Below are positions 2,301 through 30,740 of a stretch of DNA of 64,000 bases, piece after piece. The stretch is from SAR324 cluster bacterium. Its GTDB lineage: Bacteria; SAR324; NAC60-12. The stretch's first letter is position 1; each line of letters begins with the position of its first letter. The position numbers and the translations under genes are program-made. The notes under the pieces were generated by a model. That model had not been told where the DNA came from. It ran no database searches and saw only the letters and a list, made by a program, of their open reading frames with translations. The stretch lies in NCBI GenBank assembly GCA_014382365.1, contig JACNJW010000040.1, positions 15,589 through 79,588 of the forward strand, in the 5' to 3' direction.

Positions 2301-5300
2301 CTAAAATGCAGGAGGTTCTGCAAACGAAAGACTAGTCGGGACTCCGCTGATGCTGAGGCGCACCCAATAGCCCTGACCTTTCTCAACAGAACTGAACGTA
2401 CTGTAGCCTTTTGTAGTCAATTCCAGAGCAACTGATGTTTTTGGAGAATATGCCAGCCACTTGCTGCTCGCATCATCCCATTTCCAAATAGAGTGAACCC
2501 GGTCATACGATCCAGAATAGTCAAAAGTTGAAGATGTTGAATCACCCTGCGGCGGTGCACATGCTACAACCAGCGTTATCAATGCTGCAATTGGAATCAA
2601 TTGCCAGACAGGAATCCTATGCAGCTTATGTTGTGCAAGAGAGGTGCTTTTAAGCTGTACTTGTCTACGGTACACCATCAAACTAACCGAAGTTAACAGC
2701 AGCACAACCAGCAAAAGCATAGTTCTGGAATTTTGCCCGAGTTCATTTGCCGCAACTAGATAATCATTACCAACATAATTTAATCCGGACGGCGGCCCAT
2801 TTCCTCCGGAATTATCTAAAAGTCCCAAAGTATTGGATTCATCTTCTGACGTTTGATCAAAATTTGCGGCCTGTGTTATTTCTGCAACAGAAATCTTTTT
2901 TGCAGTTCCGGCCAAATTCCATTCTGAGTTCATGCTGCTCAATTGTGGTAAAGCAGTATAGCCTCCATAATTTGCAACTTCGAAATTTGCGGGATTGACC
3001 GGTGAATTCAGTTCAATCCAAAATCCTTCTCCGGCCTCAATCGTTGAGTTTAATTCAGTATAACCTTTGTCTGTATAAACAGTTTTGTTATCACTGCTGG
3101 TATAAAACTGCCATGCACCACTCCGGCGCACCCAGACAGCTTTGTAAGAACTGAATTGACTTTCAAAACTGGCAGGAGCTATTGATGTATAAGCCGGTAG
3201 CGAAACCAGATTACGGGAACCGCTCATTGTTATTGAAGCAGGAATGCTGCTGACAGATACAGTTCCGCTCAGAGCAGATGGAAGTGCATCACCAATCCTC
3301 AGTTCTGCAGTTCCTGAAGTTAAGCTCACATTAGTTGTATTGTCATAAGCGTTTTCCAGCACGAGAGTTGCTCCAGAAGATGCCGACTGGACATAAACCG
3401 GTTTTCCTGATGTTGTGTCAACACCAATCCACTGTCCGCTTGTCGCATATTCAGAAGATACACCACTACGTTGAGATGTCCGGAGTGAAAAACTACGTTT
3501 GGAGATATTTCGCGAACTGCCAGAAGTTGTCAACGGAATAGTTACAACCAGTTTTCCGGATTCCTGACTGACAGTTCCGCCGGCACCTACTCCAGGAAAA
3601 ATCTGCTTTGCATTCGTTGAAACAGTGGTAATTGTCGGTATCATCAAACCTTCACTATTCATACTCACACTGCTGCTCATACTGGAACTTGGTGCAAATG
3701 TAGAAGTTATATTACGGTTTTTGCTAAGTAAAATTGTCGAACCAGTTGCTGCCTGAAGGGTGCTCTCGGAAACACCTGTACCCTGCACTTGAATTGCATT
3801 ATTTGTACTGCTGGTGGTACTTATGATGGTACGGCTCACGCCGTCATTACCTGTTTCTGCAGAGGAAGTGCTGACAACTTTTCCGCTCTTGATCTGCAAA
3901 TCCATACTGGTTGAGGATGTGAATGTAGTTTTGCTTGCACCGCTGTCAAAACTTGTCGATGAGGTGCCGTCGTTCAAAAGACTGGCTGCAAGAGTTCCTT
4001 CCGTAACCGACATGCTGGCGGCAACTCCGCTGCTGGTATCAATTGCGACTGTCAAACCTGCATCTGTACTTATACTTGACTTACTAGACTCTGAACTGTC
4101 TGCATTTGTTGTCCTGCCAGTACCTCCGCTCAGTGTTATCTCAGTTAAAGTAGAACCGTCCGGACTGAGCGTACTGACAACCTGAGAAGTTACACCACTG
4201 GTAGCGTCAGTAGATGCAGGCAGAGAGATGCTTGAAGTACCGTCACTTCCGATACTAACTTCAGAGCCCTTGGGCGCTTTGACATTTGCACCTGTACTTC
4301 CGGAGCTAACACCGACTGTCATTTCTCCTTCTGTGCTGATGTTGGTTGACAAAGTCGCACCGCTGTTCAGAGTCATTGCAACACTAACTGATGCATCTTT
4401 ATTCATATTAACTTCTGCACCAAGCGGTACATTGACTTTAGATTCAGTACCGTCCTTAGTTTTAATTTTACTGACAACAGTACCGTCTGTATTCATATCT
4501 AGATTCAATTCAGTTGTTCCTGTGGCCAATTTAAGTGTTTTTGAACCATCTGAATTTGTGGTTTCTGCATCCAGTGTTATATCTTTTGGATATTTCGGTT
4601 TTATTGAACCCACAGCACTTCCTATTGCTGTAACTTCCTTGACCGGTACAATCGTAACTGAAGTTGAACCATAAGATGCGGTTTTATCATCATCGATCAC
4701 TTCCAGTCCAAATAAAATAACAGTTGTATCCTCAATATCCGGAGCAGAAAAATATGCAATACTCTCGTTTTCACGTTTTACTGTAACATCTGTACGCTGA
4801 CCTACATATTTCCACTTGTAAGAAACAATACGTCCGGTTGGATCAGGGTCATAAGAAGCAGAACCATCCAGAATTACTCTTGTCTGTTCATTAACTTTTT
4901 GATCAGCACCTATTTGCACTATTGGACTCAAACCTTTTTGCAGATCATCGTTGATGTTAGTAAAAGTATATTTGAAAGCATGCTGTCTACTATCTGAAGT
5001 TGAGGAATAATTCGTGTCCGTTGATTCCGTATAGCCTACTATTCGTACTCTGACGTCATCATCTACAACTGAATCATCTTCACCGGTAATTATCAGAGTT
5101 TGAGTCTTGTTCCATGTACTTGGACTAAAAGACATTGTGTATTTGTCAAGGGTAGCTTCTGATAAATCAGAACTGTTCAAAACAACCTGCACATCACTGA
5201 CAGGACGGCTGAGTAGTTTAACCGACATAGTCGCCGTTTTTCGTTCGCCTTCAGACTCGGAAAGCATCCAGTTGGCACTGACAACGTTTCTGTACAGACC

Positions 5301-8300
5301 ATGTGCATTAAATCCATATGCACCGGTTTCTGTGAATCCGCTACAATTATCTTCACAATCAACTCCGCCGGCAGTACTGATAGTGCCTACTGTTCCAGTG
5401 GTGGTGGATAATGTAATATAAGAAATTTTGCTGTTATCAGTCATACTCAAATTAGGTTCACCATCAATTTCAAGCAACGCGATTTCGTTTCCATCAACTG
5501 AAGTCAACAGTGTATTATCAAGCATCATCAAAGCATTTCCGCTGAATTTTGATGTTTGAGCATGTGCTAGTTTAAGCGTACCACCGGTGCTGGTCAGTAT
5601 TCCATCACTAATGCTTAAAGCACTCAACAGTATCAAGTCCGCATCAGCAGTAGAAATTCCTTCTAAACTTGAATCGATGATGACAGCATTTTCCACTGTA
5701 AGGTCACTGGTTGCACTTCCCAATGTCAAAGTGAAATCATTCAGATTTAAATTTACAAAATTTGAGGCTTCATCACTGGTCAAGGTACTGCTGGCTGCAA
5801 GTTTCAAATCAGTTTGTGAAATAGTAAGAACTCCACTCGATTTGATAAAATCAGCACCTAGAACCCAGGTGCTTCCACTAAGATCCAATTTACCTGTTCC
5901 TGAAAGCTGACCTCCACCCAATGTAGAAATGTCTCCTCCTGTAGATGTTATGCCACCATCACTGATGTTCAGTGCAGCAAGGAAACTTATGTCGGCATCT
6001 CCTGAAATCAACCACTCGTCGGCATTGTCGAAAGTCATTGCAGATGTTACAGACAAATCTGTACTTGCTGAACCTAGAGTCAATGTCAAATCATTCAGTT
6101 GCAGCTGGTTAAAAGCAAGTGCTGTATCACTGCTTAAAGCTATACTATTCAACAAATTCAGCATTGCAGATGAACCGTCAAAATTACCACCGCTTTTCGT
6201 ATAATCTGCACTGAGACTGAGAGTACTTGCTCCTAAGTCAAATTCAAATGTTCCGGACTGAGTACCTCCATTGCGGAAAAGCAGTGTGCCTCCAGTTGAG
6301 CTTAATTTCCCATCTGCAAGTGTCACATTACCCTCAACAGTCAAATCTGCATCTCCTGTCTTCAATAATCCATTTGCTGTTGTTAAAGCCAAGTTTCCAC
6401 TGAGAGTTAAATCACTTGATTCCGAACCCAGTGTGAGCGTATTTGCACCTAACTCAATTGTATTAACGGAAAGTAAGTTGTTGTTGGTTATTTTTAAACT
6501 ACTGAGTACTGTTAAAGATGAATCTGAGGTTTCCAGAGTTCCACCTGTTTTAAACAAATCTGCATTTAAATTCAGCAAACTATTGCTGATATTCAACAAC
6601 CCTCCAGTTTGAGATACTCCACCATTAAATATTAAGGTGCCCCCTGTTGAGTCAAGCCCTCCGTTAGCTACACTCAGTAATCCTTGAAGCTTCAAATCTG
6701 CTGAATTTGTACGTATTTGCTCATCTGCAGAATCCAATGTTGTTGGATCACTAACCGTCAAATCAGTTGTCTCAGAGCCGAGTGTAAGTGTTTTATCATT
6801 CAAAGTAAGTGTTTTCACTGAAAGAGATGTATTGCTCGTAAACGTAAGTCTCTCAGTTAATTCCAGCGTTGTTCCAGCTTCAGTTGCAGTCAGAGTTCCG
6901 GCTGATTTAAGAAAATCTGCACCCAGTTTAAATGTACTGTCTGTCAGATCCAGACTTCCTCCGGATTGCTCTCCACCTTTTGCAAATGAAATAATTCCTT
7001 TAGTTGAAGAAATAAGTCCATCCTGCATGACAAAACCACCCTGCAGGTTTAAATCTGCAGGACCTGTTACGAGTTGTGCATTTGAATCATCAAACGTAAT
7101 GTTATCTGAAACAGTCAAATCACTACTTTCAGTCAGCAAAGTTAGGAGCTTGTTATTTAATACAAGCGATTGTGTCTCAACTGCTGTATCGCTTGAATAA
7201 TTTGTATTTTCACTCAAACTCCAGGAAACATTGTCGAGTGACATTGCACCACCTGTTTTTGTCAAAGCCCCTTGAGTTTCCCATTGATTATTCTCAAATA
7301 CCAGAGTAGCACCTGCATCAACTTTTATTTGCGCATTATTCCATTTGCTACTGGAGGACTGAAATGTTACAGATTCTTGTGCATCCAGCAAATTGTTTTC
7401 AGAATAATCAAAATTTCCGCTGACTTTTGTTCCTGCAGAATTTAATACAAATTGACTTTCATCTTCAAATGTTACAGTTCCGCCAAAAGTCAACTGACCG
7501 CTGTCTCCGGATACTGTCAGCACTTTTTGGCTGGGTACTGAAAAAGAGTTCGGCGTATTTAGCTCAGTCAATACAGACAATTCAAGATTTATATTACCTT
7601 TTTGATCAAGTTGCTCTACTACTATTTTTGCAGAGCTTTGCAATATACTGTCGTCTCCTTCACAGCTAGAATCTGCACTCACATCAACAACCAACACTTT
7701 GTCGTTTTCTACAAGGCCATCACTTGGATCAATGCCAAGATGTGAGAGTGTAGTTGCATCATCTGCAAGTTTTAGAATTCCGCCATCCTTATTCAGGCGG
7801 ATTGAATTATTATCCCAACTCGAAAAACGTCCTCCACCCTGCAAGGCGAGACTCAGGTCATTAACTTCGAGTGGGATACTACCCTCATAAGTCAAAACTT
7901 TATCCGGTGCAATAAAAATTGTGGAATTAGTAAGATGTTGAATTTTGCCGTTAATTGTAACGTTTTCAGTGACGCACATTACTCCGCCGTTTAAATTAAT
8001 GTTGGCAGTCATTGACCTGTTGAAATTCATGGTCCCGCTTACATTAAAAGTCAGTCCTCCTCCAACATCGAAAACGGTGCTGCCAGTCATTACTATTTGA
8101 TCTTTAAAATTGATATCTATCTCGTTCTCAACCTTCACATTTACATCCTGCAGCGTTAAAATGACGTCGTTCGGCTGAGTCACTTCTGTTACCAAGAGCC
8201 AGCCTCCGTTGCCGTCACCCATTATTTTTGCAGTAGAATAGACGTTTAAATTTTCAACATTCAGTTCAAACGACTCGTTAGTGAAGCTCAAACCCACGTC

Positions 8301-23300: not shown

Positions 23301-26300
23301 TGCTCCTCCATCTTCTAATATTAATCCGGCACTACCTACATCCAGTAAGCTACCGTTTTTGAATGTTGGAGATTTTTGAAATGTAAGATTTCCATTAGAG
23401 TAACCAAAATATGCAGCGTCAAATTGTGATGCTTTTGAAACCGTAAGGTTCATATCACTGATAGTTAAAAAGCCGCCGCTGGTTCCACCAGACTGCCAAA
23501 ATATTAATTCGCCAATTATACTTGTGCCGGAATCTGTACGTGAAATATCTGCTGAAGTGTTTATTTGAAGTGTTGTGTCTGCGTCCGTTGTGAAACCGTC
23601 CAAACTGTGAGTTCCAGCAAGTACAAGCTTTCCGCCTGAAAGATCAAGAGTATTGGCTGCCAGGCTGATATTTGCACCACTGTTTAAATTCAACATACCT
23701 GCAACGGAAAAATCTCCTATTAGATTAAATCCAGCTGAGTTTCCGACTTCAAGTTCTCCATTCGCTCCTACATTACCCCCGGAAAGCACCAATGTTCCGC
23801 CTTTGACTTCTATTTTACTTTGAGTTAAAGCCAGACTTCCAAATGAAACAATACTGGTTGAAATACCGTTTAGAACTAAATCGAAGCCTTTTGGATCAAA
23901 AGTATCAAAACCTACAGCAGAATCGAGTATGAGACTTACATCGCTCTGTAACTCTAAAGCTGTACCGCTTAGTGTTAAGGTACCTCCGCTTTTAGTAAAA
24001 TTATCTGCTACTGCCAGCGTACTGTCCTGTATTACTAATGTTCCTCCATTGACAGCACCACCTTTTTCAAAAGTTATTTTGCCTCCACTTGAAGTCAAAG
24101 TTGTTCCGGATGTGAGATCTGCAATCCCTCCAGTGAAAGTCAGATCTGCCAGGTCCGTTGCCATTGTTCCTGCTGGAGTACCTGTGTTTGTTCCACTATT
24201 ACTTGAAGCACTGAGGTCAAGTGTCAAATCTGTTGTTTCTGAGGCAAGTGTAAAAGTGAAACCTTCTAAATTCAACTCGCCTAAAATGAAACCCTGACTG
24301 CGATTCACTGTTGTATCTTCACCAAGTTTGAATGTTGTCTGGTTATTGGTCAGTACATTATCTAGAGTTACGTTGCCGCCAAGTTTCAGCGTGCCTCCGG
24401 AGAGATCAAGATTGGACCCGAGGTTCCAGCTTGTGGTACTGTTTGTTTTGAGGGTTCCGGAAACCGCATAGTCAGTTCCAATCTTCAATTCAGCACCCGC
24501 CGCATTGATTTCTCCAGCATTGGTTCCGCCCTGCTGAAATTCGAGCTTTCCCCCTGTGCCGGTAATGACACTTGCATCAATAGACGCTCCGGTTGAAATA
24601 TCCGCCCTGCCAACAAAAACAAGATCGGCACCCTGAGTGCTTAGTGTACCGGATGCAAGTGTAAAAGCATTTCCGAGTGTAAGGTCAGAGGTTACGGAGG
24701 CTAGTTTAAAATTAAAACCATTGGTATCTAAAGTTGCTGCTTCAACTGCCACCGTGCTTGCAAGCTCTGCATTGGCAGTCAGTGAAAGATTGGTATTTGT
24801 ACTTGTCCAAGAATCCGCAACATTTAAATTTCCACCAAGTTGAATCGTTGTTCCGGAAGTGCTGAAAGTTGCTCCGCTGACTGCAGTAGCACCGCCGGGC
24901 AGACTTAAGGTTCCGCCTTCGATATTAATTATTCCGGTAGTATCTGCGCTCAGACTTGAGGCAGAAAGAGTTCCGCCACTGGATGAAAGCGTTCCGGAGC
25001 TCACTGTAATTCCACCGTTGAGTGACAAATCAGCCGCGCCGCTTATAATCTGTTCTGTGGCTGCGTCAAGTGTCACTGCCTGCGAAACACTCAGTCCCGC
25101 CATTGCGTCATCCAGCGTCAAGGCAAATTCTTCCAGTTCAAGTGTGCCGATTGACAAGGTGTCGCTGTCATTGAGCGTCGTATCTCCTGACAAACGAAGT
25201 ATGCTTGTATTATCCGGAGTCACTCCGCTTAAATCCTGTGTACCCTCAATCTCCAGATTACTGCCTGATAATGTCAACGCGTTTGAGTTTGTAGTAAAAG
25301 TTGTGTTCTTGGTCTTCAGTGTTGAAGAGGAAATTGTCAACGGACTTTGCAGAACCAACGTTGACTCAGGAAGTGAGAGAGTTGAACCTTCAGCAAGACT
25401 GCCTCCGGAGTTGAGGGTGATTGTGCCTCCGCTTGAATTGAGTTTCGCAAGATTGCTCAAGTTCAACGCTCCGGCAAGTGACAAACTTCCTGCACCGGTT
25501 TCCAAAGTGATGCCGGACAAACTAAGCGTTGTATTAGCGTCAGTTAAGTTCAGCTGAGTTGTTGCTGAACCAAGAGTCAGTACCTGACCCTCCAAATTAA
25601 CACTACCGAAAGAAACAGCATTACTCGATGAAAGCGTGGTTGCAGACTGCAGTTTCAGAATTGAAGTATTACTGCTGCTGAATGTTCCGGCGTTCAGATC
25701 AAGAGTCTGGCTGACACTCAAGGTACTGTCTGTTACATCAAGTATTCCTGCTTCGCCCAGAGTCAGTCCGCCTGCAAATGAAAGCGTTCCGCCTGTGGAA
25801 GTAATTGAGCCTGAATCAAGTTGCAAAGCGCTGGAAAGCGTCAGATTAGCAGATTTGGTTTCAATTGCTGAGCCGGTCGCAGTCATTGCCAGAGGGTTCG
25901 GCAGAGTCAGGCCTGCACTGTCTTCTGCAAGTGTAAGTTTGTTTCCACTTAATTCCAGTGTACCGAAACTCAGTGGGGTATTGCTCGTTACCTCTGTATC
26001 ACCACTTAATTTAAAAGTTGTATTTGTGCCGGTTGTAAAATCATTTAAGTTGATTGAACCCCCGCTAGACTCAAGGGTTCCGGAACTAAGATCAAGCGTA
26101 CCCTGCCAACCACTCCAGTTCGAACCGGAGTTTGCCGTTAAAGTTCCTGTTATGTTTAAGGCTCCTCCAAGTTTAAGCTCAGAGTCGCTCATGTCTAACT
26201 TACCGGTGGCTCCGACAGTTCCACCTTCGATCAGATTCAGAATACCGCCGCCCTGCACAAGCTCTCCATTCAGCGTCAAGGCTCCACTCAGTTGAACTGA

Positions 26301-29300
26301 ACCATTGTCTGAAGTAAGTAAACCTCCACTTTCGATTATTAAGGAATTGTTCAGTGAAGTATCTATTTGGCCCAAATTCAACGAGTCACCATTGTCTATA
26401 TTTAATGTTGAATTGAACATCACTTCTGTTACATTACTTCCCAGTGTTAAGGCATTTCCGTTCAGGTCCAAGGTGGTGAAATCAAGACGCCCATTACTTG
26501 AGAGGGTTGTATCTCCATTCAATACTACAGAACTATTATTCAAACCATACCAACTGTCAGCCAGAGAAACTGTACCCTTTGGTTTAAAAACTGAATTCTC
26601 TAAATACAAATTACCATTGCTGAAAGTTAGTCCATCCTGCAAAATCAACTCACCGTCAAGCACTCGAATGGAAGCATTATCTGCTGAAACAGTTTTTTGT
26701 AATGTGAGCGTACCTTTATTGAAATTGATATTTCCTTGTTCGATTTGGACATCTCCGACAATGTTGAGGCTCATATTATCAACCTCTAAATAAGTACCAT
26801 TATTGCTGGAGTTGTCGTTTTCATATTGTACAGAGAGCATTTCCAGATTTCCGATGGTGTTACTACCGTAGTCGGTCCTAAAAATATGTCCGTAAGAATT
26901 AATTTGGAGCGTAGTTGCTGAAGAGGTGGTGATGCCATCCAGATTATGTTTGCTGCTCAATTCCAGACGACCGCCGGAAAGGTCTATTAGATTATCCGAA
27001 GGAGTAACATTTGCATCATGATCCAGAACCAAAGTTCCAGCAACCGCCACATTGCCCTGCAAATTCAGATTGCCGTTCCAGCCAATTTTAATTTTTCCGT
27101 TTTGGGTGACATTTCCTCCCGAAAGATTGAGTGCACCGTTTTGTATTTCTACTGTTCCATCATCAAGCGTCAAATTTCCGTTGAAACTCACATCTCCCTG
27201 ATAACTATGGATGGTCGCATTATCTTTCAGTGTTACATCACCGGAGAGAGTTAGATTTGCATCGTCAGTTTGGATACCTATGTAATGAGAGTTATTGTCC
27301 AGGTGTGTCTCAGTTAGAATATCGTTTTGATACTCATACCATTTAACAAAACCACTCGACAAAGCGGCAGAACTAGGTTGAAGCAAAATGTCTCCACCCA
27401 GAGTTAGAGTGGATGCATTATCATGCATCAGCAATCCCCAACCGTTAGGTTCATAGCTGTCAAATGTGACTGCAGATCCCGGCTCAAAAATAGTATTAGC
27501 ATTTAATCTAAGTGTGCTGGCAGAGGTAGTAAACGTACCGCCATCGTAATTCCCAAACGGTCCACCAAGTTCTAAAATACTGTTGCTCAAATCCAATTCA
27601 CTGTTTGCCCCTAAACCTCCACCTTTTTCCAGCTTAAGAGTTCCCCCTCCCATCTCCAGTTTGCCGTGTTCAAGGTAGAAAGATCGTGTCATAGTTACGT
27701 CAACCCCTTGAGCAATCAAAGCACCCACATTACTATTATTGAGAGTACCATTATCACCATAATTTGGAGCCCAAAAGCTACCTGTTGTTAAACTGGTAAT
27801 TGCTGAATTCAAAGTTAAAGTGTTGCCTTTCGCGCTTATTCCTTTAAACAAAAGGACACCGGTTTTTGTGATACCTGCGTCGCCAACCAAACCTAAGTAT
27901 GTCTCACTGTCTGTAACCACATCTGTAAAATCAAATTCCGGCCCTCCTCCAAGATCAATACCGTCTGCTAGTGTTAAAGTGTTACCATTGGTTTTCAAAA
28001 GAGAAGAGGCTCCTGTAAATTCCATCCATGAGACTGTGAGATTTGTCCTTAAATCTAAGGTTGTGTTTTCCAGCAACATTCCTGTTTCATTATCCGCGAA
28101 AGTAGTCCCTGCTGATCCTGCTTCATAAGTTACAGTTCCACCACTGGACATTATTCCTCCTGCCAGCACATTGACTGGACCATTCAGAGTCAAATCTGCA
28201 AGCCCTGTATCAAGTCCATTCTCTCCGGGATAATTAATGGTGAGTCCTTCATTAATAGTCAAATCAGTAGTTTCCGAACCCAGCTTCAACCAATGCTGGC
28301 CCAGCTCGACAGTCTTTAGTGATATTGGATTAGCACTGCTGAGTGTTGTATCAGCAGTTAGTTTAATTGTGCTTTTGTCGTCAAAAGCCATTCCGTCAAG
28401 GGACAGCGTTCCGCTCGTCTCCAAAACCCCTCCGGATGCCGCAGTTCCACCAGAAAAATCAAGAATATTGTTGTTTAGTGTAATTGTCGAAGTGTCTTTC
28501 AATTTCAAAGTTCCGGCAACACTTAAACCTGCATTCAGCACCAAGGAACCACTACTGATTTCCAGCTTGGCATCCGAAGCAATTGTGCTGACATTTCCCA
28601 AAGAAATACTACCGTCATCTACTTCAATTTCTCCTGCTGACAATGTTAAGCCACCGGATAAAGTCAGATCCGCGCTACCGACTTTGATTTTTTCGTTTTC
28701 ATTACTCAGGCTTAAAATATTACTTATAGTTAAATCAGTTGATGCCGATCCCAAAGTCAAATCATTTCCATTCAAGGCCAGTGATTGAAAACTAAGCGGA
28801 CTGTAACTAAATATACTAACATCATTAAGGAGTTTAAATTCTGTAGTCGATGAGGCCATGTTGCCGCTCAGTATATTGCTCAGATGACTGCTGAGATTTA
28901 CTTTTGAATCCGAGAGATCCATATTTCCATCTTCCAGCGTTACTCCTCCTGAAAGCGTCAGTTCAACATTTTGCAGACTTACTGTTCCTTGATTGTGCAG
29001 CAAACCGCCGACTGTAACTTGCGGGTTATCCGGAAAGTCATCATCGAGATTTTTCAATGCAACATCCGCTCTCGAATCCAGATAGAGATGCTTAACTTCA
29101 GTCTCAGTCAGTGCACGGTTATATAGGCGAAATTCGTCCAGGTTTCCACCAAAATAATTACAAAAGCATTCACCCTGTTCACCAATGTAAAGGGGTGCTG
29201 ACGTTCCACCGTTATCTATGGCAGTGATATTACTATAGTAGGGACCGTCTTCAACTCCATTAAGATAAAAATAAATGCGCAACTGTTCGCCGATATCCTC

Positions 29301-30740
29301 TACCGTGACCGCGACATGCTGCCAGGTATTGAGAGCATAAGTCGTTATTGAAAAAACACTTGAACCACAGACAGCCTGATCCCAAAAAACAAGGCTGTTA
29401 GGTGTTCCACAACTACCGTCTCCTGACAAGGCAAAACCATAACCATAATTACCACGCATGGCAATACTACTCCAATCGTTATCTGTCGGATAAACCCAGG
29501 CTGACATTGTTAGCTTTTCACCCATGTTAAGACTAGTGCTGGTAGGAATTGTCAAGTAATCATCAGTACCGTTTAAAGCCAGTGACTTGTCTGCGTCTCC
29601 TTTACGGTCGGCGGCATAACTCGAACCATCCACGGAAGGGGCGTGATTAGCATTTGTGGTTTCATCGTTGGCATTTCCATTGAATTTATAGTGAGCAACC
29701 AAGCCATTTTCAGCCATTGCATTTAGTACAACTTCATACTCCTGATGTCCGTCCGAAATTTCGTCATTGACTCCGGTTACTGTCACGGTTTGCGGCGTGT
29801 TCCAGTTTTGCTCAGTGAAGCTTAAAGTGGCAGGATTGACATATGCTTCGCTGGTGTTACTACTGGATAAACTAACTGTAAGATCCAAATCATCATCTAG
29901 GTTGTGCAGGACCACTTCTACAGATTCTGGTGCTGAAATACTCACACCGCTTGCTGACAAGCTGATTTGATATTCCTGGTGTCCATCTGAATCTGTATCA
30001 TCAATTCCTGTCACGGTTACAGTTTGCGCAGTGTCCCAATTTCCCGTTGTAAAAGTTAAGATCGCCGGATTTACTGTTGCTTCTTCGGTATTACTGCTGG
30101 AGACATTGACAACAACATCCTCAGTTGGAGCAATTTTCAGCGTAACATCAAAGGTTGCGGCTGTTCCGTCTTCTGATGTATGTCCGGAAATGTTGCTGAT
30201 CGTGTAAAAAGTGCTTTCTGGTGCTACCGGAGCTTCAGGAGTTGCGGGAACAGGAGGAGCGGCATTAAGTACAACATCAAAAGTAGAAGCTGTTCCGACT
30301 TCTGAAGTATGTCCTGAAATGTTAGTGATGCTGTAGAAATCACTGATCGGTATGCTGGGATCTGCAGGGGTTTGTGGTGCCTGCAGATTTATGTTTCCTG
30401 AATTAGTTAGTTTGTTGCCGAAATTTGCATTCCCTGTGAGATTTAAGGTTCCACCATTTTCAACTTCCACTGTACCTGAAATGCTGTTGACTGAATCACT
30501 CCAATTCACAGACGTTCCGGAACCAATTTTGTAATTCAGGGAATAATTTGAACCACACTCCGAACTTTGTGAACTACCATCGCTGAGTGTCCCAAAAGTG
30601 GAGCTAGAAGTGAGGGCACCATCAGTTGTCGAAACACATTGATTCGATGTGGCCTGCAACATTGTGAACAAAGCTCCGCCGCCCAGTACCAGAAGCACAA
30701 GTAAGTAACGCGGCTGCAGAATTTTGTTGAGTTTAAGCAT
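2301..30740 (-). CDS. Giant secreted surface fibre/adhesin: 9479 aa, a single uninterrupted 28,440-nt ORF. From N to C it has a Sec signal peptide and two Ig/cadherin-like modules. Next come a LamG (concanavalin-A-like) domain and roughly 8000 aa of Gly/Thr/Ser/Asn/Leu-rich beta-helix-type repeats in at least three families. The C-terminal part has a Cys-containing segment, another Ig/cadherin-like module, a PKD-like module and a ~370-aa Ser/Thr-rich stalk. A duplicated Trp-rich ~50-aa domain flanks a C-terminal hydrophobic anchor region.
   Basis: The six-frame track shows one minus-strand ORF of 9479 aa with N-terminal MLKLNKILQPRYLLVLLVLGGGALFTMLQA. The repetitive low-complexity composition is typical of beta-helical adhesins and haemagglutinin-like fibres. 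A LamG motif run is present (AHYKFNGNANDE...SAWVYP...WQHVAVT...LDEFRLYNRALTETEVKHLYL). A PKD-like motif LDGSASYDPDPTGRIVSYKWKY was confirmed on the nucleotide sequence near 4805-4860. The many plus-strand ORFs inside this span are antisense artefacts of the repeats. Confidence 0.9.
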   Translation of the reverse strand: MLKLNKILQPRYLLVLLVLGGGALFTMLQATSNQCVSTTDGALTSSSTFGTLSDGSSQSSECGSNYSLNYKIGSGTSVNWSDSVNSISGTVEVENGGTLNLTGNANFGNKLTNSGNINLQAPQTPADPSIPISDFYSITNISGHTSEVGTASTFDVVLNAAPPVPATPEAPVAPESTFYTISNISGHTSEDGTAATFDVTLKIAPTEDVVVNVSSSNTEEATVNPAILTFTTGNWDTAQTVTVTGIDDTDSDGHQEYQISLSASGVSISAPESVEVVLHNLDDDLDLTVSLSSSNTSEAYVNPATLSFTEQNWNTPQTVTVTGVNDEISDGHQEYEVVLNAMAENGLVAHYKFNGNANDETTNANHAPSVDGSSYAADRKGDADKSLALNGTDDYLTIPTSTSLNMGEKLTMSAWVYPTDNDWSSIAMRGNYGYGFALSGDGSCGTPNSLVFWDQAVCGSSVFSITTYALNTWQHVAVTVEDIGEQLRIYFYLNGVEDGPYYSNITAIDNGGTSAPLYIGEQGECFCNYFGGNLDEFRLYNRALTETEVKHLYLDSRADVALKNLDDDFPDNPQVTVGGLLHNQGTVSLQNVELTLSGGVTLEDGNMDLSDSKVNLSSHLSNILSGNMASSTTEFKLLNDVSIFSYSPLSFQSLALNGNDLTLGSASTDLTISNILSLSNENEKIKVGSADLTLSGGLTLSAGEIEVDDGSISLGNVSTIASDAKLEISSGSLVLNAGLSVAGTLKLKDTSTITLNNNILDFSGGTAASGGVLETSGTLSLDGMAFDDKSTIKLTADTTLSSANPISLKTVELGQHWLKLGSETTDLTINEGLTINYPGENGLDTGLADLTLNGPVNVLAGGIMSSGGTVTYEAGSAGTTFADNETGMLLENTTLDLRTNLTVSWMEFTGASSLLKTNGNTLTLADGIDLGGGPEFDFTDVVTDSETYLGLVGDAGITKTGVLLFKGISAKGNTLTLNSAITSLTTGSFWAPNYGDNGTLNNSNVGALIAQGVDVTMTRSFYLEHGKLEMGGGTLKLEKGGGLGANSELDLSNSILELGGPFGNYDGGTFTTSASTLRLNANTIFEPGSAVTFDSYEPNGWGLLMHDNASTLTLGGDILLQPSSAALSSGFVKWYEYQNDILTETHLDNNSHYIGIQTDDANLTLSGDVTLKDNATIHSYQGDVSFNGNLTLDDGTVEIQNGALNLSGGNVTQNGKIKIGWNGNLNLQGNVAVAGTLVLDHDANVTPSDNLIDLSGGRLELSSKHNLDGITTSSATTLQINSYGHIFRTDYGSNTIGNLEMLSVQYENDNSSNNGTYLEVDNMSLNIVGDVQIEQGNINFNKGTLTLQKTVSADNASIRVLDGELILQDGLTFSNGNLYLENSVFKPKGTVSLADSWYGLNNSSVVLNGDTTLSSNGRLDFTTLDLNGNALTLGSNVTEVMFNSTLNIDNGDSLNLGQIDTSLNNSLIIESGGLLTSDNGSVQLSGALTLNGELVQGGGILNLIEGGTVGATGKLDMSDSELKLGGALNITGTLTANSGSNWSGWQGTLDLSSGTLESSGGSINLNDFTTGTNTTFKLSGDTEVTSNTPLSFGTLELSGNKLTLAEDSAGLTLPNPLAMTATGSAIETKSANLTLSSALQLDSGSITSTGGTLSFAGGLTLGEAGILDVTDSTLSVSQTLDLNAGTFSSSNTSILKLQSATTLSSSNAVSFGSVNLEGQVLTLGSATTQLNLTDANTTLSLSGITLETGAGSLSLAGALNLSNLAKLNSSGGTITLNSGGSLAEGSTLSLPESTLVLQSPLTISSSTLKTKNTTFTTNSNALTLSGSNLEIEGTQDLSGVTPDNTSILRLSGDTTLNDSDTLSIGTLELEEFALTLDDAMAGLSVSQAVTLDAATEQIISGAADLSLNGGITVSSGTLSSSGGTLSASSLSADTTGIINIEGGTLSLPGGATAVSGATFSTSGTTIQLGGNLNVADSWTSTNTNLSLTANAELASTVAVEAATLDTNGFNFKLASVTSDLTLGNAFTLASGTLSTQGADLVFVGRADISTGASIDASVITGTGGKLEFQQGGTNAGEINAAGAELKIGTDYAVSGTLKTNSTTSWNLGSNLDLSGGTLKLGGNVTLDNVLTNNQTTFKLGEDTTVNRSQGFILGELNLEGFTFTLASETTDLTLDLSASSNSGTNTGTPAGTMATDLADLTFTGGIADLTSGTTLTSSGGKITFEKGGAVNGGTLVIQDSTLAVADNFTKSGGTLTLSGTALELQSDVSLILDSAVGFDTFDPKGFDLVLNGISTSIVSFGSLALTQSKIEVKGGTLVLSGGNVGANGELEVGNSAGFNLIGDFSVAGMLNLNSGANISLAANTLDLSGGKLVLAGTHSLDGFTTDADTTLQINTSADISRTDSGTSIIGELIFWQSGGTSGGFLTISDMNLTVSKASQFDAAYFGYSNGNLTFQKSPTFKNGSLLDVGSAGLILEDGGAFDSSNLSFPDASFKMSGSLSLVNNSVVDYDSTSTVKLEGATTLSHSGNATWPDFDLNGNELTLDSSVTSMTIDGAQNIGSYETFNSGSSELSFNDSLSIAEGGKLASGTGNISLMDGLTLNGEFVQGGGILNLIEGGTVGATGKLDMSDSELKLGGALNITGTLTANSGSNWSGWQGTLDLSSGTLESSGGSINLNDFTTGTNTTFKLSGDTEVTSNTPLSFGTLELSGNKLTLAEDSAGLTLPNPLAMTATGSAIETKSANLTLSSALQLDSGSITSTGGTLSFAGGLTLGEAGILDVTDSTLSVSQTLDLNAGTFSSSNTSILKLQSATTLSSSNAVSFGSVNLEGQVLTLGSATTQLNLTDANTTLSLSGITLETGAGSLSLAGALNLSNLAKLNSSGGTITLNSGGSLAEGSTLSLPESTLVLQSPLTISSSTLKTKNTTFTTNSNALTLSGSNLEIEGTQDLSGVTPDNTSILRLSGDTTLNDSDTLSIGTLELEEFALTLDDAMAGLSVSQAVTLDAATEQIISGAADLSLNGGITVSSGTLSSSGGTLSASSLSADTTGIINIEGGTLSLPGGATAVSGATFSTSGTTIQLGGNLNVADSWTSTNTNLSLTANAELASTVAVEAATLDTNGFNFKLASVTSDLTLGNAFTLASGTLSTQGADLVFVGRADISTGASIDASVITGTGGKLEFQQGGTNAGEINAAGAELKIGTDYAVSGTLKTNSTTSWNLGSNLDLSGGTLKLGGNVTLDNVLTNNQTTFKLGEDTTVNRSQGFILGELNLEGFTFTLASETTDLTLDLSASSNSGTNTGTPAGTMATDLADLTFTGGIADLTSGTTLTSSGGKITFEKGGAVNGGTLVIQDSTLAVADNFTKSGGTLTLSATDLELLSNLSLTSDATFAVNELRLENKILTLNSVSSFTVANELVLDNANERIIWDENSAVALNGGLKLDPNGEFAWKDPVNLTIGDISLNGGVLELGENVSQTFALASNLTLTADSAIKFNSGSILNYSGAEIMLGNELSFSGIGQLQNTNALNLGTNGKLKLSGISIANVISSADSLGMEIENNSTVSSLTVSNLLPVSITSSKSLSGNIVVNTGGTLQFSNSGTLAANVLMSGGTLDANESLTISGALTQSGDISIDVDSGKTLTFGSGEIKTGSYQLTLEGAGIVAFPENASGIVLNNSDGLLKLNGTGTLQSAKVSTASNEGKGILIDDSGTISKLNIAADTELNIAAGKTLSGSTDVAQNTSLKLSGAGTFGSTLNLEGTLEAGTSLMVSGTINVADNVTVLIPDAGTTLSYSGGNLTVQDYTLTIGGAGTFSNAVNSPIVLVVEESVLDLTGNGIISGAIRLEGCTLKASGSPTISGDIGIFDDANIEVVSGKTLNYSGASLKLGANKLTMSGGGIFNNSNVLELDHADSLLVLAGINTVGNVKSTSVANSGKGVQVTESVTLGNFEMTATTILDIAANKTIDGQIKLNNNSELKISGSGEYTGGMELAGGKFSVANDKNLTGTLSLSADSEMNVAPNSTLIIQQGGDFSLNEKILSLRGNGSLKFQNSINVQDGELKVSNGTLDFADGGSVDELTLESATLVLGGDLTIGDKLTTSGNDPTLQLNGSSVDLSGTNVKLELGTGLSLDGVITGTNTALLLSADATLSRGSPFTLGSIDLQNKALSLASETSDMTVTGALTFDTTASQMLTGGADITLQSALALADGKLSSTSGILTLQQGAVFGNGAVFDFSGSTVKLSGTLDVADGTLNTNNSSKLELQTASSFSSNAVFTIPTLDLNGQGLTLNTSSTHLTLSNLLTVGSDESINTQSGSMTLNDALSLNNNGKLESSAGALIFNGSVALDDAGILMTGGSVAFNSAAQISGGELKLFNSTLTLAADVAMSNSSTLRLKDTAFSVGSSKITLTGGTLEFGGTYSDFSKIQTDSNTALKLNADTNISTSSAMIIGGLDLNNFELTLGSETTDLTIQSILKLDNSGSKLTTNQADLSLPYPLELNAGKITSSGGTFTLTQGGTLGTNATLDVSGTTLKLNADLAADSGTLTTNDTSILDLLDDVILTFNGEKTFKALEHNGKILSLGSSTSDLKLLDPLNLSAVTLHTGDADLNLQGTLTLAANSVLDSTGGTLKLGGSVDSTSEISLPGTELALRSNLAIAGTLSTDAGSTISRNTRELNLSGGKLILGGDLDLGGTVTDDATSLTLQTDSTLGNSLATKFGTLDLNGSALSITMATTINDPFTLDASGEQLLTGASDLTLNNQLELVAGKLSSQSGVISFGSTVNLGSAGTIDIQGGELKLSDNISITGGTLTLAETSELNLINDVTISSNRALSFGTLEMNNRNLTVTATEGADLTLKKAFTLNNGSTLQMSGADLSFAETATIAGILEPSGGRLTFQKGGSVSGTVNSKNSTLALQTANLVFSGLLQTNGSTGLSGANWLNLSNGRLETAGSLTLDDVATSNGTVLKLTADTTISRDSLFTLGSVNLAGNSLTLGSATTDLTINNSAPTEGESAGTFKIQEADLTWTGAAEFSTAKVYASGGTLTLSGGSSLSANGLISLSSGSTLILVGTFGQSGGELTVDAAAIQTGGNLTKTGGSLTSSNSSLELTDDVTFSSDSALSFKAVTLNNNVLSLAGQSSSFTLSEELTLNNPNGRIVQDSTSLILTGGVSIDSGAVLRLTKDLDTGTAKIKLNGGLLAIESSTTLNSSIEHLAASTIEIAETKTLTYEGATIKVGPFALSIGGGGSYSNTNPLELDNAASQLKLSAVTANYVRTSADSLGLVVENESTVNELTVGHLIPVSISENQSLSGEIEVFSNGNLQLNNSGTLAANVTMKGDAFGAGTVGGKLDVQQSLTFSGSLLQAVDHKGIELTIASGKTLTYSGSEIGVGDHEFKLSGGGTFANTSKLELDDSGSKLSISDSTIISLLSVSTAATAVGLNITDSDVSATGNIVENLYLSDSFSVTSDTPVALGNITAAAALTFSSNKDVNSGTLALTGGAELSLGTENVTVRVTSPVTVDNTQKLSNGGGSFDFAGGLNLEPGSALVGQGQQISGDIALNGGNLSIEQSTVLVDNLVQSADSTININSSQTLTYSGTTVDLSTSKLNIQGGGNFINTAASALSLNNSNSHLVLDNVVVGYVSVSAASGSNKGLDVISDATLSNLNLTEKLRLSVASEKTFSITESLTVPTQGMELSGSGMLELNENFTLNGDVILTSGSLTVDAKGVLLNLGGDFNLTGGVLQTDVTTNFHLLRDSTLTTNAEQLIANVTIAENVQPMLTLGSTTKLKVDELISVGISCPQSLPVEPKGQLKLPGGVSINTGGEFCIDGWLEGNIVLNGGTLRIDGDMTISSSSSISLNASSNLKIVDGASLTYEGAALNLNDSILSISGGGSLLLNTDGSNPLTLNNADGGLEFSGAGASTVSHVKTSSGDNLNAPVLKMTGSGVINNLAHTGFSEINYVSGKTLSITEAFEVPTEKELKISGAAGTLTLGDNMTLSGTLNLPIANTTLSGGTVTLNGGTLQVYEDINFISDLAQQADSSIVVADGKTLNYSGNEFNLGAQTLILSGSGNFANTTNITLNDPSSSLKFNGIAKVNKVSVSAVLTSGKLEIVQDSIIESLSHSGSSMIEIANAKTLMLKNALEIPQAKSLELSGSGGGTLSLNEKLTLKGTLKVSAADTVKDGTLSLSGGTLEVVENAGILSTLLHKASSEVNVSSGKVLTYSGSAMDIGGFALTLSGGGKFANSADLKFNDVASVLNLAGITEVSKVSFPVSLQTGKLNVSENTLIQSLTHTGESIINISSGKTLSIKEDFSVSSNKTMLLNGSGGSLKLENTLTLNGTLQMDEESRLEGGTLAFDSGIVSVKKDSTISSSITHPAASTFEIASGKRLTLQGDLSVPAERKMNLTGSNGVLELEDTLTVSGTMEFAVPQTLDNGTIVLNGGKLSVNDDVAISAIITHNADSTVNISSGATLTHSGGDFKIGAKTLTLSGGGTFANQDQLVLDDPVSILKLDGISAVANVSVPLTLTTGKLEVVNNAGVQNLLHSGSSVVDILSGKTLSISNGFEIPQTKVMQFVGAGGTLAIGDNLTLSGTLKFPVSGVLSGGTVFLSGGKFDVDENLTIESNMVHSANATIEIATGKSINYTGQEFNLEAFKLIFSGGGTFNNTNNLSLNHAQSKLQLDGIKISKVAVKTELSDGVINVAENSTIDSLTQSASFSIELDEGNNLTLTNPFEIPAGKFMELLGSGAGRTIYLPDALKLSGNLKISSAGYSLTSGVLGLNGGLLDVLENTNIAATITQLSSSSIAVAADKTLTYSGNTPKIGAFTLTLSGSGTITNENAITLNDASSQLVLKGINQISKVAVTGELTSGMLSVDNDTLIQTLSHTGSSRFDISNDTTLTVQNLFEVPQNKSMELVGADNGTLVLGDQLTLSGILKFSAPDTLSDGTLALNGGTLSISENAIINSKITHLMDSAISVFADKTLKYTGDSPNVGALALTLSGEGKIENIKDIALDDPLSVLVLNGVEVSRVSFPEELSTGKLSVTGDSLIETLTQNVSSRLDIASGVRLTLENTFEIPEATTMELIGSGSGSLGISDTLTLSGEIKFNAPDSSLDNGTLALNGGTLTSSENTTVSSDITHLLNSTIDVSADKILSYFGSDLEIGALTLTMSGGGSFNNSTELSLNNAASVLKLDGIAKVEKVAVAEDLIEGSIDVIQNVTINTISPVKSTRIDIANSISLTLTDSVEVPMNKVLELQGSGGGILNISDKLTLSGTLKLNATNNTLNNGTLIFNNGLLDVDENVTISTQLSLADNASMDLANGKQLSLTKTFEIPQDHKLEILGSDGGTLSITDTLKLAGTLQFSAPTISSGTPYHNMINGKLELIEGSLLDVDYKTKIASDILISGNSSVDVAQGVNLEYSGLSIDITTFQLTLLGSGTLLNSNSILLSSTDSLLVFADDITIALIEVTANSTAGKGIRVESANAKITNLNLLADVGLSFTNESFELNVENLNVYSTAKIMGDGNGGWLLVTEVTQPNDVILTLQDVNVKVENEIDINFKDQIVMTGSTVFDVGGGLTFNVSGTMNFNRSMTANINLNGGVMCVTENVTINGKIQHLTNSTIFIAPDKVLTYEGSIPLEVNDLSLALQGGGRFSSWDNNSIRLNKDGGILKLADDATTLSHLGIDPSDGLVENDKVLVVDVSADSSCEGDDSILQSSAKIVVEQLDQKGNINLELSVLTELNTPNSFSVPSQKVLTVSGDSGQLTFGGTVTFEDESQFVLNSAGTKVSGNFDYSENNLLDAQESVTFQSSSSKWNNAQIKVDAGATLVFENNQWETQGALTKTGGAMSLDNVSWSLSENTNYSSDTAVETQSLVLNNKLLTLLTESSDLTVSDNITFDDSNAQLVTGPADLNLQGGFVMQDGLISSTKGIISFAKGGEQSGGSLDLTDSTFKLGADFLKSAGTLTATEAGTTLELTERLTFTSNTSLSVKTLTLNDKTLTLGSETTDLTVSDPTTLDSADEQIRTNSADLKLQGLLSVANGGLDSTGGTLIFNGGVSQTGGLLNISNSLLNLNADLFKTGGTLETSDSSLTVLSSLKITNNNLLSVNTIELGANTLTLGSESSDLTLSGNLALTTANGLLKTGDADLTVEGNVTLADGKLSSTGGTLLFRNGGTQSGTFEFDLGASTLSLSADYTKSGGNFDGSSAMLNLLNSIALSSDTALAFNQLQLNDLTLTLGSASTDLSVTSAMTFDNADEWLISGDADISFLAALNISDGGITSTGGDISTLGGGQLSGTGKLDLSGSTWVLGADFIKSSGVLTISQTDLKLAASSTLTSDEASNFVNLNLNDFTLTLGSATSDLTVENAVIIDSSLEGISTADADLILLSALSISDGILTSTGGTLKLAHAQTSKFSGNALMMLDNTLLTSVDGNEIALLEIDGEPNLSMTDNSKISYITLSTTTGTVGTISTAGGVDCEDNCSGFTETGAYGFNAHGLYRNVVSANWMLSESEGERKTATMSVKLLSRPVSDVQVVLNSSDLSEATLDKYTMSFSPSTWNKTQTLIITGEDDSVVDDDVRVRIVGYTESTDTNYSSTSDSRQHAFKYTFTNINDDLQKGLSPIVQIGADQKVNEQTRVILDGSASYDPDPTGRIVSYKWKYVGQRTDVTVKRENESIAYFSAPDIEDTTVILFGLEVIDDDKTASYGSTSVTIVPVKEVTAIGSAVGSIKPKYPKDITLDAETTNSDGSKTLKLATGTTELNLDMNTDGTVVSKIKTKDGTESKVNVPLGAEVNMNKDASVSVAMTLNSGATLSTNISTEGEMTVGVSSGSTGANVKAPKGSEVSIGSDGTSSISLPASTDATSGVTSQVVSTLSPDGSTLTEITLSGGTGRTTNADSSESSKSSISTDAGLTVAIDTSSGVAASMSVTEGTLAASLLNDGTSSTSFDSGASKTTFTSSTSMDLQIKSGKVVSTSSAETGNDGVSRTIISTTSSTNNAIQVQGTGVSESTLQAATGSTILLSKNRNITSTFAPSSSMSSSVSMNSEGLMIPTITTVSTNAKQIFPGVGAGGTVSQESGKLVVTIPLTTSGSSRNISKRSFSLRTSQRSGVSSEYATSGQWIGVDTTSGKPVYVQSASSGATLVLENAYDNTTNVSLTSGTAELRIGDALPSALSGTVSVSSIPASITMSGSRNLVSLPAYTSIAPASFESQFSSYKAVWVRRSGAWQFYTSSDNKTVYTDKGYTELNSTIEAGEGFWIELNSPVNPANFEVANYGGYTALPQLSSMNSEWNLAGTAKKISVAEITQAANFDQTSEDESNTLGLLDNSGGNGPPSGLNYVGNDYLVAANELGQNSRTMLLLVVLLLTSVSLMVYRRQVQLKSTSLAQHKLHRIPVWQLIPIAALITLVVACAPPQGDSTSSTFDYSGSYDRVHSIWKWDDASSKWLAYSPKTSVALELTTKGYSTFSSVEKGQGYWVRLSISGVPTSLSFAEPPAF
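2304..3152 (-). other. C-terminal anchor region of the giant protein. It begins with Trp-rich domain copy A (SSYKAVWVRRSGAWQFYTSS...GEGFWIELNS; 3003-3152). A hydrophobic helix MLLLVVLLLTSVSLMVY follows (about 2679-2720), then a basic patch YRRQVQLKS...HKLHR. A second signal-peptide-like hydrophobic segment WQLIPIAALITLVVAC carries a lipobox-like VVAC (Cys codon 2559-2561). Trp-rich domain copy B (YDRVHSIWKWDDASSKWLAY...GQGYWVRLSIS; about 2343-2507) closes the region.
   Basis: Coordinates were checked by reverse-complementing 2551-2570 (VVACAP) and 2671-2720 (MVYRRQ / MLLLVV). No stop codon separates the two hydrophobic segments, and I saw no Shine-Dalgarno sequence before either internal Met. 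Confidence 0.6.
3150..4250 (-). other. Ser/Thr/Gly-rich low-complexity stalk (~370 aa) between the PKD-like module and the C-terminal Trp-rich domains. It is a possible flexible or glycosylated spacer.
   Basis: The translation is dominated by S/T/G/A with few hydrophobic residues (for example ...SSESSKSSISTDAGLTVAIDTSSGVAASMSV...STTSSTNNAIQVQGTGVSESTLQ...). Confidence 0.6.
4680..4930 (-). other. PKD-like domain in the giant protein (IGADQKVNEQTRVILDGSASYDPDPTGRIVSYKWKYVGQRT...).
   Basis: The PKD-like signature DGSxSxDPDG.I.SY.W was verified on the reverse complement of about 4805-4860. Confidence 0.5.
6100..12700 (-). repeat. Second repeat family of the giant protein: about 10 or more diverged tandem ~220-230-aa units. 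The consensus is roughly ...GKTLTYSG...LSGGG.F.N...L.LD...S.LKL.GI..V..VSV......GKL.V......I..L.HSG.S...I..GKTL.I...FE.P..K.MEL.GSG.G.L.L.D.LTLSG.LKF....
   Basis: Recurring blocks in the translation, for example SGKVLTYSGSAMDIGGFALTLSGGGKFANS... versus SGATLTHSGGDFKIGAKTLTLSGGGTFANQ... versus ADKTLTYSGNTPKIGAFTLTLSGSGTITNE.... Coordinates are approximate. Confidence 0.5.
20630..22909 (-). repeat. Copy 1 of a 2.28-kb near-100%-identical intragenic direct repeat (about 760 aa of beta-helix repeats).
   Basis: Nucleotide-level comparison of 20641-22909 with 23971-26239 (offset exactly 3330 bp) shows identity apart from one mismatch seen at 20658 vs 23988. Boundaries are sharp: sequence diverges upstream of 20630/23960 and decays after 22909/26239. 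Identical plus-strand antisense ORFs in the track (21307-21513=24637-24843; 21529-22227=24859-25557) corroborate it. Confidence 0.9.
23960..26239 (-). repeat. Copy 2 of the 2.28-kb near-identical intragenic direct repeat.
   Basis: Same comparison as copy 1. The 1050-bp segments between and flanking the copies (19580-20629, 22910-23959, 26240-27289) are homologous but clearly diverged. The underlying period is therefore 3330 bp (1110 aa). Confidence 0.9.
29070..29700 (-). other. LamG / concanavalin A-like lectin domain (Laminin_G_3-type) inside the giant protein.
   Basis: Hallmarks are NGLVAHYKFNGNANDET..., LALNGTDDYLTIP..., LTMSAWVYP..., WQHVAVTVEDIGEQLRIYFYLNG..., and LDEFRLYNRALTETEVKHLYL. 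The C-terminal motif was checked on the reverse complement of 29075-29110. Confidence 0.75.
29740..30200 (-). other. Two tandem Ig/cadherin-like extracellular modules (~95 aa each) separated by Pro-rich linkers. They share the motif SSSNTxEAxVNPAxLxFTxxNWxTxQTVTVTGxDDxxSDGHQEY. A third related copy lies near the C-terminus (VQVVLNSSDLSEATLDKYTMSFSPSTWNKTQTLIITGEDD...).
   Basis: Direct repeat comparison in the translated N-terminal region. Pro/Ala-rich linkers (APPVPATPEAPVAPE) separate the copies. Confidence 0.5.
30650..30740 (-). other. Sec-type signal peptide of the giant protein (about the first 30 aa).
   Basis: N-terminal MLKLNKILQPRYLLVLLVLGGGALFTMLQA-TSNQ has a positive n-region, a hydrophobic core and A-x-A-like cleavage context. 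A weak RBS (AAAGG) lies about 5 nt upstream of the ATG on the minus strand. Confidence 0.7.

Follow-up and report, generated by a model that had tools for sequence, protein, structure and literature searches.

A 64,000-nucleotide stretch of DNA from a marine SAR324 cluster bacterium (hereafter the window) carries a single gene of 9,479 codons whose product we interpret as a cell-envelope fibre of ~1 MDa, comprising a lectin-fold head, a β-helix rod and a tail built from a helical hairpin and a lipobox, together with a partner protein, g722, encoded directly downstream; we put the probability of this reading at about 0.6. SAR324, an uncultured lineage, ranks among the most abundant bacteria of the dark ocean and is believed to live in part on particles, and the homologs we found of the giant protein are named SAR324 cluster bacterium. 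A conserved fibre of 1 MDa and ~190 nm would cost the cell heavily and would be a likely determinant of attachment.

The giant gene contains a long perfect duplication, and these elements are placed as follows:

2301..30740, minus strand: the whole giant ORF, with an ATG start, 9,479 codons plus a TAG stop, and no internal stop
23989..26239, minus strand: copy 1 of a perfect 2,251-nt direct repeat (gene nt 4502-6752)
20659..22909, minus strand: copy 2 of the same repeat (gene nt 7832-10082)

The start of the ORF is well defined because its stop-to-stop frame reaches just 5 codons upstream of the ATG, and the probability of 9,479 stop-free codons arising by chance, estimated from the base composition of the window, is ~1e-239. 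The window contains no N letters. The same locus is present at 99.9-100% identity on six independent metagenome contigs, in agreement with the one unbroken ORF described in a sequence-only reading of this DNA, and downstream ORFs of 6,106 and 7,162 aa on independent contigs share its stop codon. That reading gave no strand, which is minus, and ranked the gene among the largest in bacteria; the gene is large, but bacterial proteins exceeding 30,000 aa have been described (bioRxiv 10.1101/2023.11.21.568195).

The two repeat copies were detected by direct offset comparison, a repeat-finding scan having returned only a 300-nt family, and they are offset by 3,330 nt, or 1,110 codons, in frame. The 1110-aa period claimed earlier is really a two-copy duplication, of which just 750 aa are identical. 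Contigs L004-L006 stop 30-55 nt into copy 1, while the remaining three of the six bridge the repeat in the form A-R-B-[100 N]-C or A-[100 N]-B-R-C, with L001 and L002 carrying 100 N in place of copy 2; combined, the six contigs support the layout A-R-B-R-C. A perfect repeat of this length is difficult to assemble, which raises the possibility of an assembly artefact, or of a pseudogene in decay, with a continuity that is not biological. Two related sequences point in that direction, namely the MAG L012, whose frame is interrupted once, by a stop after about codon 227, and the long contig L013, which is broken in all frames. However, all junctions (A-R, R-B, B-R and R-C) agree across independent assemblies, the two repeat copies are offset by a multiple of 3 nt, and the N- and C-terminal architecture is kept in orthologs at 47-81% identity. 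Furthermore, the neighbouring housekeeping genes of L013 also match only partially, indicating indel errors in that assembly. We regard an artefact or pseudogene as highly improbable, and the giant ORF is confirmed as a real gene of 9,479 aa. Short-read assemblies break at this gene because of its perfect internal duplication, and it illustrates how genes of this kind drop out of metagenome-assembled genomes: nearly all the homologs found were fragments, since contigs break in the repeats.

The N-terminal head comprises the following features:

30651..30740, minus strand: Sec (SPI-type) signal peptide, aa 1-30 (MLKLNKILQPR / YLLVLLVLGGGALFTML / QA↓T, read from the sequence)
30366..30650, minus strand: conserved mature N-terminus, aa 31-125 (QCVSTTDGxLT..., from an ortholog alignment by eye)
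29706..30365, minus strand: Ig-like/Calx-cadherin-like modules, aa 126-345 (motif LTFTxxNWxTxQTVTVTGxDDxxDG)
29091..29573, minus strand: Laminin_G_3 domain (concanavalin-A-like lectin fold), aa 390-550 (Pfam PF13385, E 1.6e-25)

The predicted signal peptide, which had been recognized earlier, combines a basic n-region, a 17-aa hydrophobic core and LQA↓T, a pattern kept in six orthologous loci (L007, L010, L011, L012, L017 and L018). The segment that follows contains two conserved cysteines (C35 and C62) and has no Pfam or NCBIfam match and no known family; its QCVSTTDGxLT-type motif recurs in a distant 4,863-aa ortholog, P0223. The Ig-like modules form an internal repeat with 64% identity, and their motif is also found in other large SAR324 and deltaproteobacterial proteins. 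The lectin-fold domain scores 90.5 bits against a gathering cut-off of 27.6 and covers profile positions 1-151 of 151. Scanning the protein against Pfam in ten pieces recovered this domain and the PKD domain described below; a scan of two 5,000-aa halves gave almost nothing and missed LamG.

The head is followed by a repeat body that accounts for most of the protein:

5367..29018, minus strand: repeat body, aa 575-8458, a predicted right-handed three-stranded parallel β-helix rod

An iterated HMM tiles this region with 83 copies, which are arranged with higher-order periods of 118, 170/340, 235 and ~264-291 aa, and the 170-aa unit aligns to the 118-aa unit with an hhalign E value of 4.8e-5. 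These profile comparisons indicate that a single superfamily, organized at several higher-order periods, makes up the body, in place of the three repeat families proposed earlier. The giant protein as a whole is rich in L (13.3%), S (13.2%), T (11.8%), G (11.0%) and N (7.6%). Self-blastp of the whole protein returned the identity hit alone, and internal repeats were searched with 250-aa chunks. In a first AF2 alignment the internal shifted repeats were re-aligned on the identical diagonal and contributed nothing. One 585-aa block of the ~7,900-aa body folds in the AF2 model as a pertactin-like right-handed β-helix, and the nearest structural neighbours of this fold are without exception secreted or surface proteins; pieces of the body and the repeat-unit profile gave nothing significant in PDB sequence searches. 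Extending the modelled block at ~20 aa and 0.48 nm per coil, we infer that the entire body would form one continuous rod of ~180-200 nm.

Between the rod and the tail lie four segments:

4941..5366, minus strand: helix end, a Cys-containing segment (CEDNC) and one further Ig-like module, aa 8459-8600
4650..4910, minus strand: K319L-like PKD domain, aa 8611-8697 (Pfam PF22352, E 5e-12)
4131..4643, minus strand: ordered antiparallel β-hairpin meander, aa 8700-8870
3471..4130, minus strand: Ser/Thr-rich segment with low-confidence structure, aa 8871-9090

The further Ig-like module shares 35% identity with aa 195-259 and is predicted by AF2 to contain 7 strands, with pLDDT of 53-76. The Ig/cadherin-like modules proposed earlier are putative: one copy is a predicted 7-strand β module, with moderate pLDDT only, and no Pfam or NCBIfam model reached threshold for these modules. 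The PKD domain scores 46-47.7 bits against a gathering cut-off of 27, so that both domains named in the sequence-only reading, LamG and PKD, lie above their Pfam gathering scores. The Ser/Thr-rich segment that was there called a stalk is likewise real, with S+T reaching 39.5% in aa 8871-9090 compared with 25% over the whole giant protein.

The tail combines two copies of a small domain with two hydrophobic helices:

2982..3167, minus strand: small 'W-x-W ... GEGFW' domain, copy 1, aa 9192-9253, with columns invariant across orthologs
2670..2723, minus strand: hydrophobic helix TM1 (TMLLLVVLLLTSVSLMVY), aa 9340-9357, present in 42/42 C-termini
2610..2669, minus strand: variable basic loop, aa 9358-9377, net charge +5 (+2 to +6 in homologs)
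2562..2609, minus strand: hydrophobic helix TM2, aa 9378-9393, with the lipobox L-V-V-A↓C at its end
2304..2561, minus strand: Cys-started 86-aa terminal domain with W-x-W copy 2, aa 9394-9479, ending FAEPPAF

Copy 1 aligns to the terminal domain with an hhalign probability of 79% (E 1.5e-5), indicating that the two small domains are homologous. The complete arrangement of TM1, loop (+2 to +6), TM2 with lipobox and Cys-started domain of 86-93 aa was found in all 42 C-termini examined, each of which has the features of a lipoprotein signal (basic n-region, h-region and lipobox [LVI][ASTVIM][GAS]C). P0223, which was located via the repeat profile, has the same tail type, and its different lipobox residues (LLMS↓C) still fit the rule. 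The lipobox signal of the giant protein is internal, lying 9,377 residues from the N-terminus, and the basic loop that precedes TM2 is predicted to be cytoplasmic from the positive-inside rule. The helices predicted by AF2 span aa 9337-9364 and 9382-9394; the C-terminal model that contains them is poor (pLDDT 50.9), and in it even the PKD domain scored low. The terminal 86-aa domain is the best-conserved part of the tail. A profile search with the last 300 aa retrieved orthologs only and nothing outside the lineage, sequence and tail-profile searches found no PDB relative of the 86-aa domain or the tail, and the succession of helix, basic loop, helix with lipobox and small domain matched none of the models in the libraries searched, nor any relative beyond orthologs. 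A literature search for an SAR324 giant protein or an 'internal lipobox' returned no paper, and the literature searched holds no precedent for LspA cleavage at an internal lipobox. The conserved two-helix hairpin, internal lipobox and 86-aa terminal domain were overlooked in the sequence-only reading. We also considered whether a lipoprotein gene had been fused to the giant gene through loss of a stop codon, and rejected this because homologs carry no stop at that point and TM2 is not preceded by a conserved Met or Shine-Dalgarno sequence.

Immediately downstream of the giant gene is a second gene, which had also escaped earlier notice:

218..2296, minus strand: g722, 692 aa, its ATG 4 nt after the TAG of the giant gene

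The g722 sequence combines a signal peptide with some four 'HYxxYWG' modules of ~100 aa each and a barrel-like C-terminal domain of ~200 aa ending in Phe, and on these features it looks like an outer-membrane protein with a putative barrel; it has no Pfam, NCBIfam or PDB match. In L025, a 67%-identical ortholog, the partner gene overlaps the giant's stop codon. A g722 homolog (25.6% identity, E 4e-43) also lies behind P0223, where the upstream genes differ. g722 is a tightly coupled, conserved downstream partner of the giant gene.

In the cell-envelope fibre that we favour, Sec would thread the giant protein out N-terminus first, TM1 would act as a stop-transfer segment, the basic loop would remain cytoplasmic and TM2 would re-exit, and the TM1-loop-TM2 hairpin would anchor the C-terminus in the inner membrane. 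The lipobox Cys would then be presented to Lgt and LspA, and the 86-aa domain may be freed as a separate lipoprotein; because this domain is homologous to the one just before TM1, it could tether the fibre base to the envelope. At the outer membrane, the tightly coupled g722, with its predicted barrel and four β modules, would be the leading candidate to hold the fibre or let it pass. The likeliest role would be attachment over a long reach to particles or to other cells, the lectin-fold head lying distally, and the giant protein is probably adhesive. SAR324 has been reported to be motile, adhesive and particle-associated (PMC9031357; bioRxiv 10.1101/310524). Surface exposure is something we infer, because no outer-membrane translocation route was identified: no model for an autotransporter barrel, TPS domain/TpsB, T1SS, T9SS CTD or CTERM matched. 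An inner-membrane C-terminal anchor would also need to coexist with a stalk that crosses peptidoglycan and the outer membrane.

The lack of a detected outer-membrane translocation signal or dedicated translocator also speaks for a fibre that stays inside the outer membrane, as a periplasmic or envelope-internal rod with its C-terminal hairpin in the inner membrane and with an outer-membrane link provided by g722 and/or the released lipoprotein; such a rod would serve a structural function, in cell shape or the mechanics of the envelope, for instance. In the predicted hairpin, both small-domain copies would be periplasmic, and the N-terminal modules of g722 would face the periplasm if its barrel is small. 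However, a ~190-nm rod would need to lie flat in a periplasm ~25 nm wide, the nearest structural neighbours of the fold argue for the cell surface, and the protein carries LamG, PKD and Ig-like modules and a pertactin-like helix, all of which are typical of extracellular adhesins. We therefore consider a periplasmic rod unlikely and retain a fibre with a distal lectin-fold head. A tentative extension of this preferred reading, which we hold to be possible though doubtful, is that the tail acts as a self-anchoring polyprotein module: following Sec export of ~9,300 residues, the hairpin, the LspA-released 86-aa lipoprotein and co-translated g722 would dock the fibre to the outer membrane by a route distinct from types V, I and IX. 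If the tail and g722 are indeed an anchoring or export device, they would represent a new way for diderms to display giant fibres.

Upstream of the giant gene, and not remarked upon earlier, is a MotAB-like operon encoding a FliG/MgtE_N-like membrane protein, MotA, a long MotB, an outer-membrane barrel, a FecR-like protein and a lipoprotein. In a bolder form of the self-anchoring proposal, this MotAB/FliG-like machine would drive or tension the fibre. The giant protein could be the cargo or moving adhesin of a stator-like machine that uses PMF to secrete, tension or move it, as the genes share a strand with neighbours at most 185 nt apart or overlapping, the giant gene comes after the operon in at least 7 related loci (L007, L010, L011, L012, L013, L017 and L018), and the operon has its own outer-membrane and periplasmic parts. 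However, the more distant SAR324 loci L021 and L022 keep the operon with a 589-aa lipoprotein where the giant gene would stand, while P0223 and its g722 homolog adjoin a PAS-histidine kinase and not the MotAB-like operon. Moreover, SAR324 is flagellated (PMC9031357), which means that a stator paralog could work independently of the fibre, and we judge a functional coupling of this kind to be quite improbable. Assignment of the MotAB genes to the Zorya anti-phage system was rejected, as MotA has no ZorA match and ZorB was matched only by the generic OmpA part of MotB. Promoter and terminator scans gave background levels, and no tRNA or Rfam features were found in the window.

Compared with known secretion systems, the giant protein shares with type Va both a Sec signal peptide and a β-helical passenger. 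Unlike type Va passengers (pertactin, Vag8, Pet, Hap and Ag43), it has no C-terminal 12-strand translocator barrel (no Pfam Autotransporter or NCBIfam match, whether searched with the full protein or with its last 1,040 or 190 aa), its helix is ~10-20 times longer, its tail is α-helical and hydrophobic, and it shares 10-14% identity with them and lacks any Pfam PATR, pertactin or autotransporter match. Type Vb exoproteins (FHA, HMW1, EtpA and HxuA) differ in possessing an N-terminal TPS domain, for which aa 1-140 and 120-345 gave no Haemagg_act match (E up to 1 in Pfam, and up to 10 in further searches). No neighbour matched POTRA, ShlB or Omp85 as a TpsB would, and g722 and the 416-aa barrel protein are unclassified; in contrast to the type Vb arrangement, g722 lies downstream, has no detectable POTRA/Omp85 and has a barrel-like part of only ~200 aa. 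A pertactin-type β-helix, hitherto tied to type V secretion, is thus found here in a protein without translocator barrel, TPS domain or TpsB. For a T1SS RTX/Lap-type adhesin, there is no RTX match in the giant, a Sec signal is present, and no ABC, MFP or TolC genes occur in the 64-kb window; for T9SS, no Pfam or NCBIfam CTD match was obtained with the last 85, 190 or 1,040 aa. The absence of T1SS/RTX, TPS and T9SS CTD signals noted in the sequence-only reading is consistent with these searches, in which an autotransporter barrel was likewise absent.

SprB of Flavobacterium is a giant repetitive surface protein of the T9SS that is moved by a gliding motor, and SprF is its small outer-membrane partner. 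The SAR324 locus resembles this pair in that the gene for a putative small outer-membrane partner directly follows the giant gene and the genome codes for a PMF motor, but the giant protein lacks a T9SS CTD, g722 is not a PorP/SprF match, the phylum differs, the motor link is only putative, and the operon and the giant gene occur apart. With tripartite sorting signals (PEP-CTERM/exosortase, GlyGly-CTERM/rhombosortase and LPXTG/sortase), the tail shares a hydrophobic helix with a basic cluster behind it, close to the C-terminus; however, no NCBIfam sorting-signal model for PEP-CTERM, GlyGly-CTERM or LPXTG matched at E up to 10, the helix and basic cluster stand 122 aa from the end, and beyond them lie another helix, the lipobox and the 86-aa folded domain. 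The giants of Omnitrophota exceed 30,000 aa and have many TM regions and SecA-like domains, with type II/IV secretion genes alongside (bioRxiv 10.1101/2023.11.21.568195). Like the SAR324 protein, they are metagenome-derived, assembly-fragmented and equipped with adhesion-type domains and, in some, C-terminal TM segments (bioRxiv 10.1101/2023.11.21.568195), whereas the SAR324 giant has one signal peptide, two TM helices and no SecA domain, and type II/IV secretion genes are not among its neighbours in the window. The giant protein is probably a variant among the giant β-helical adhesins, with an anchoring tail and export route that fit no system described so far.

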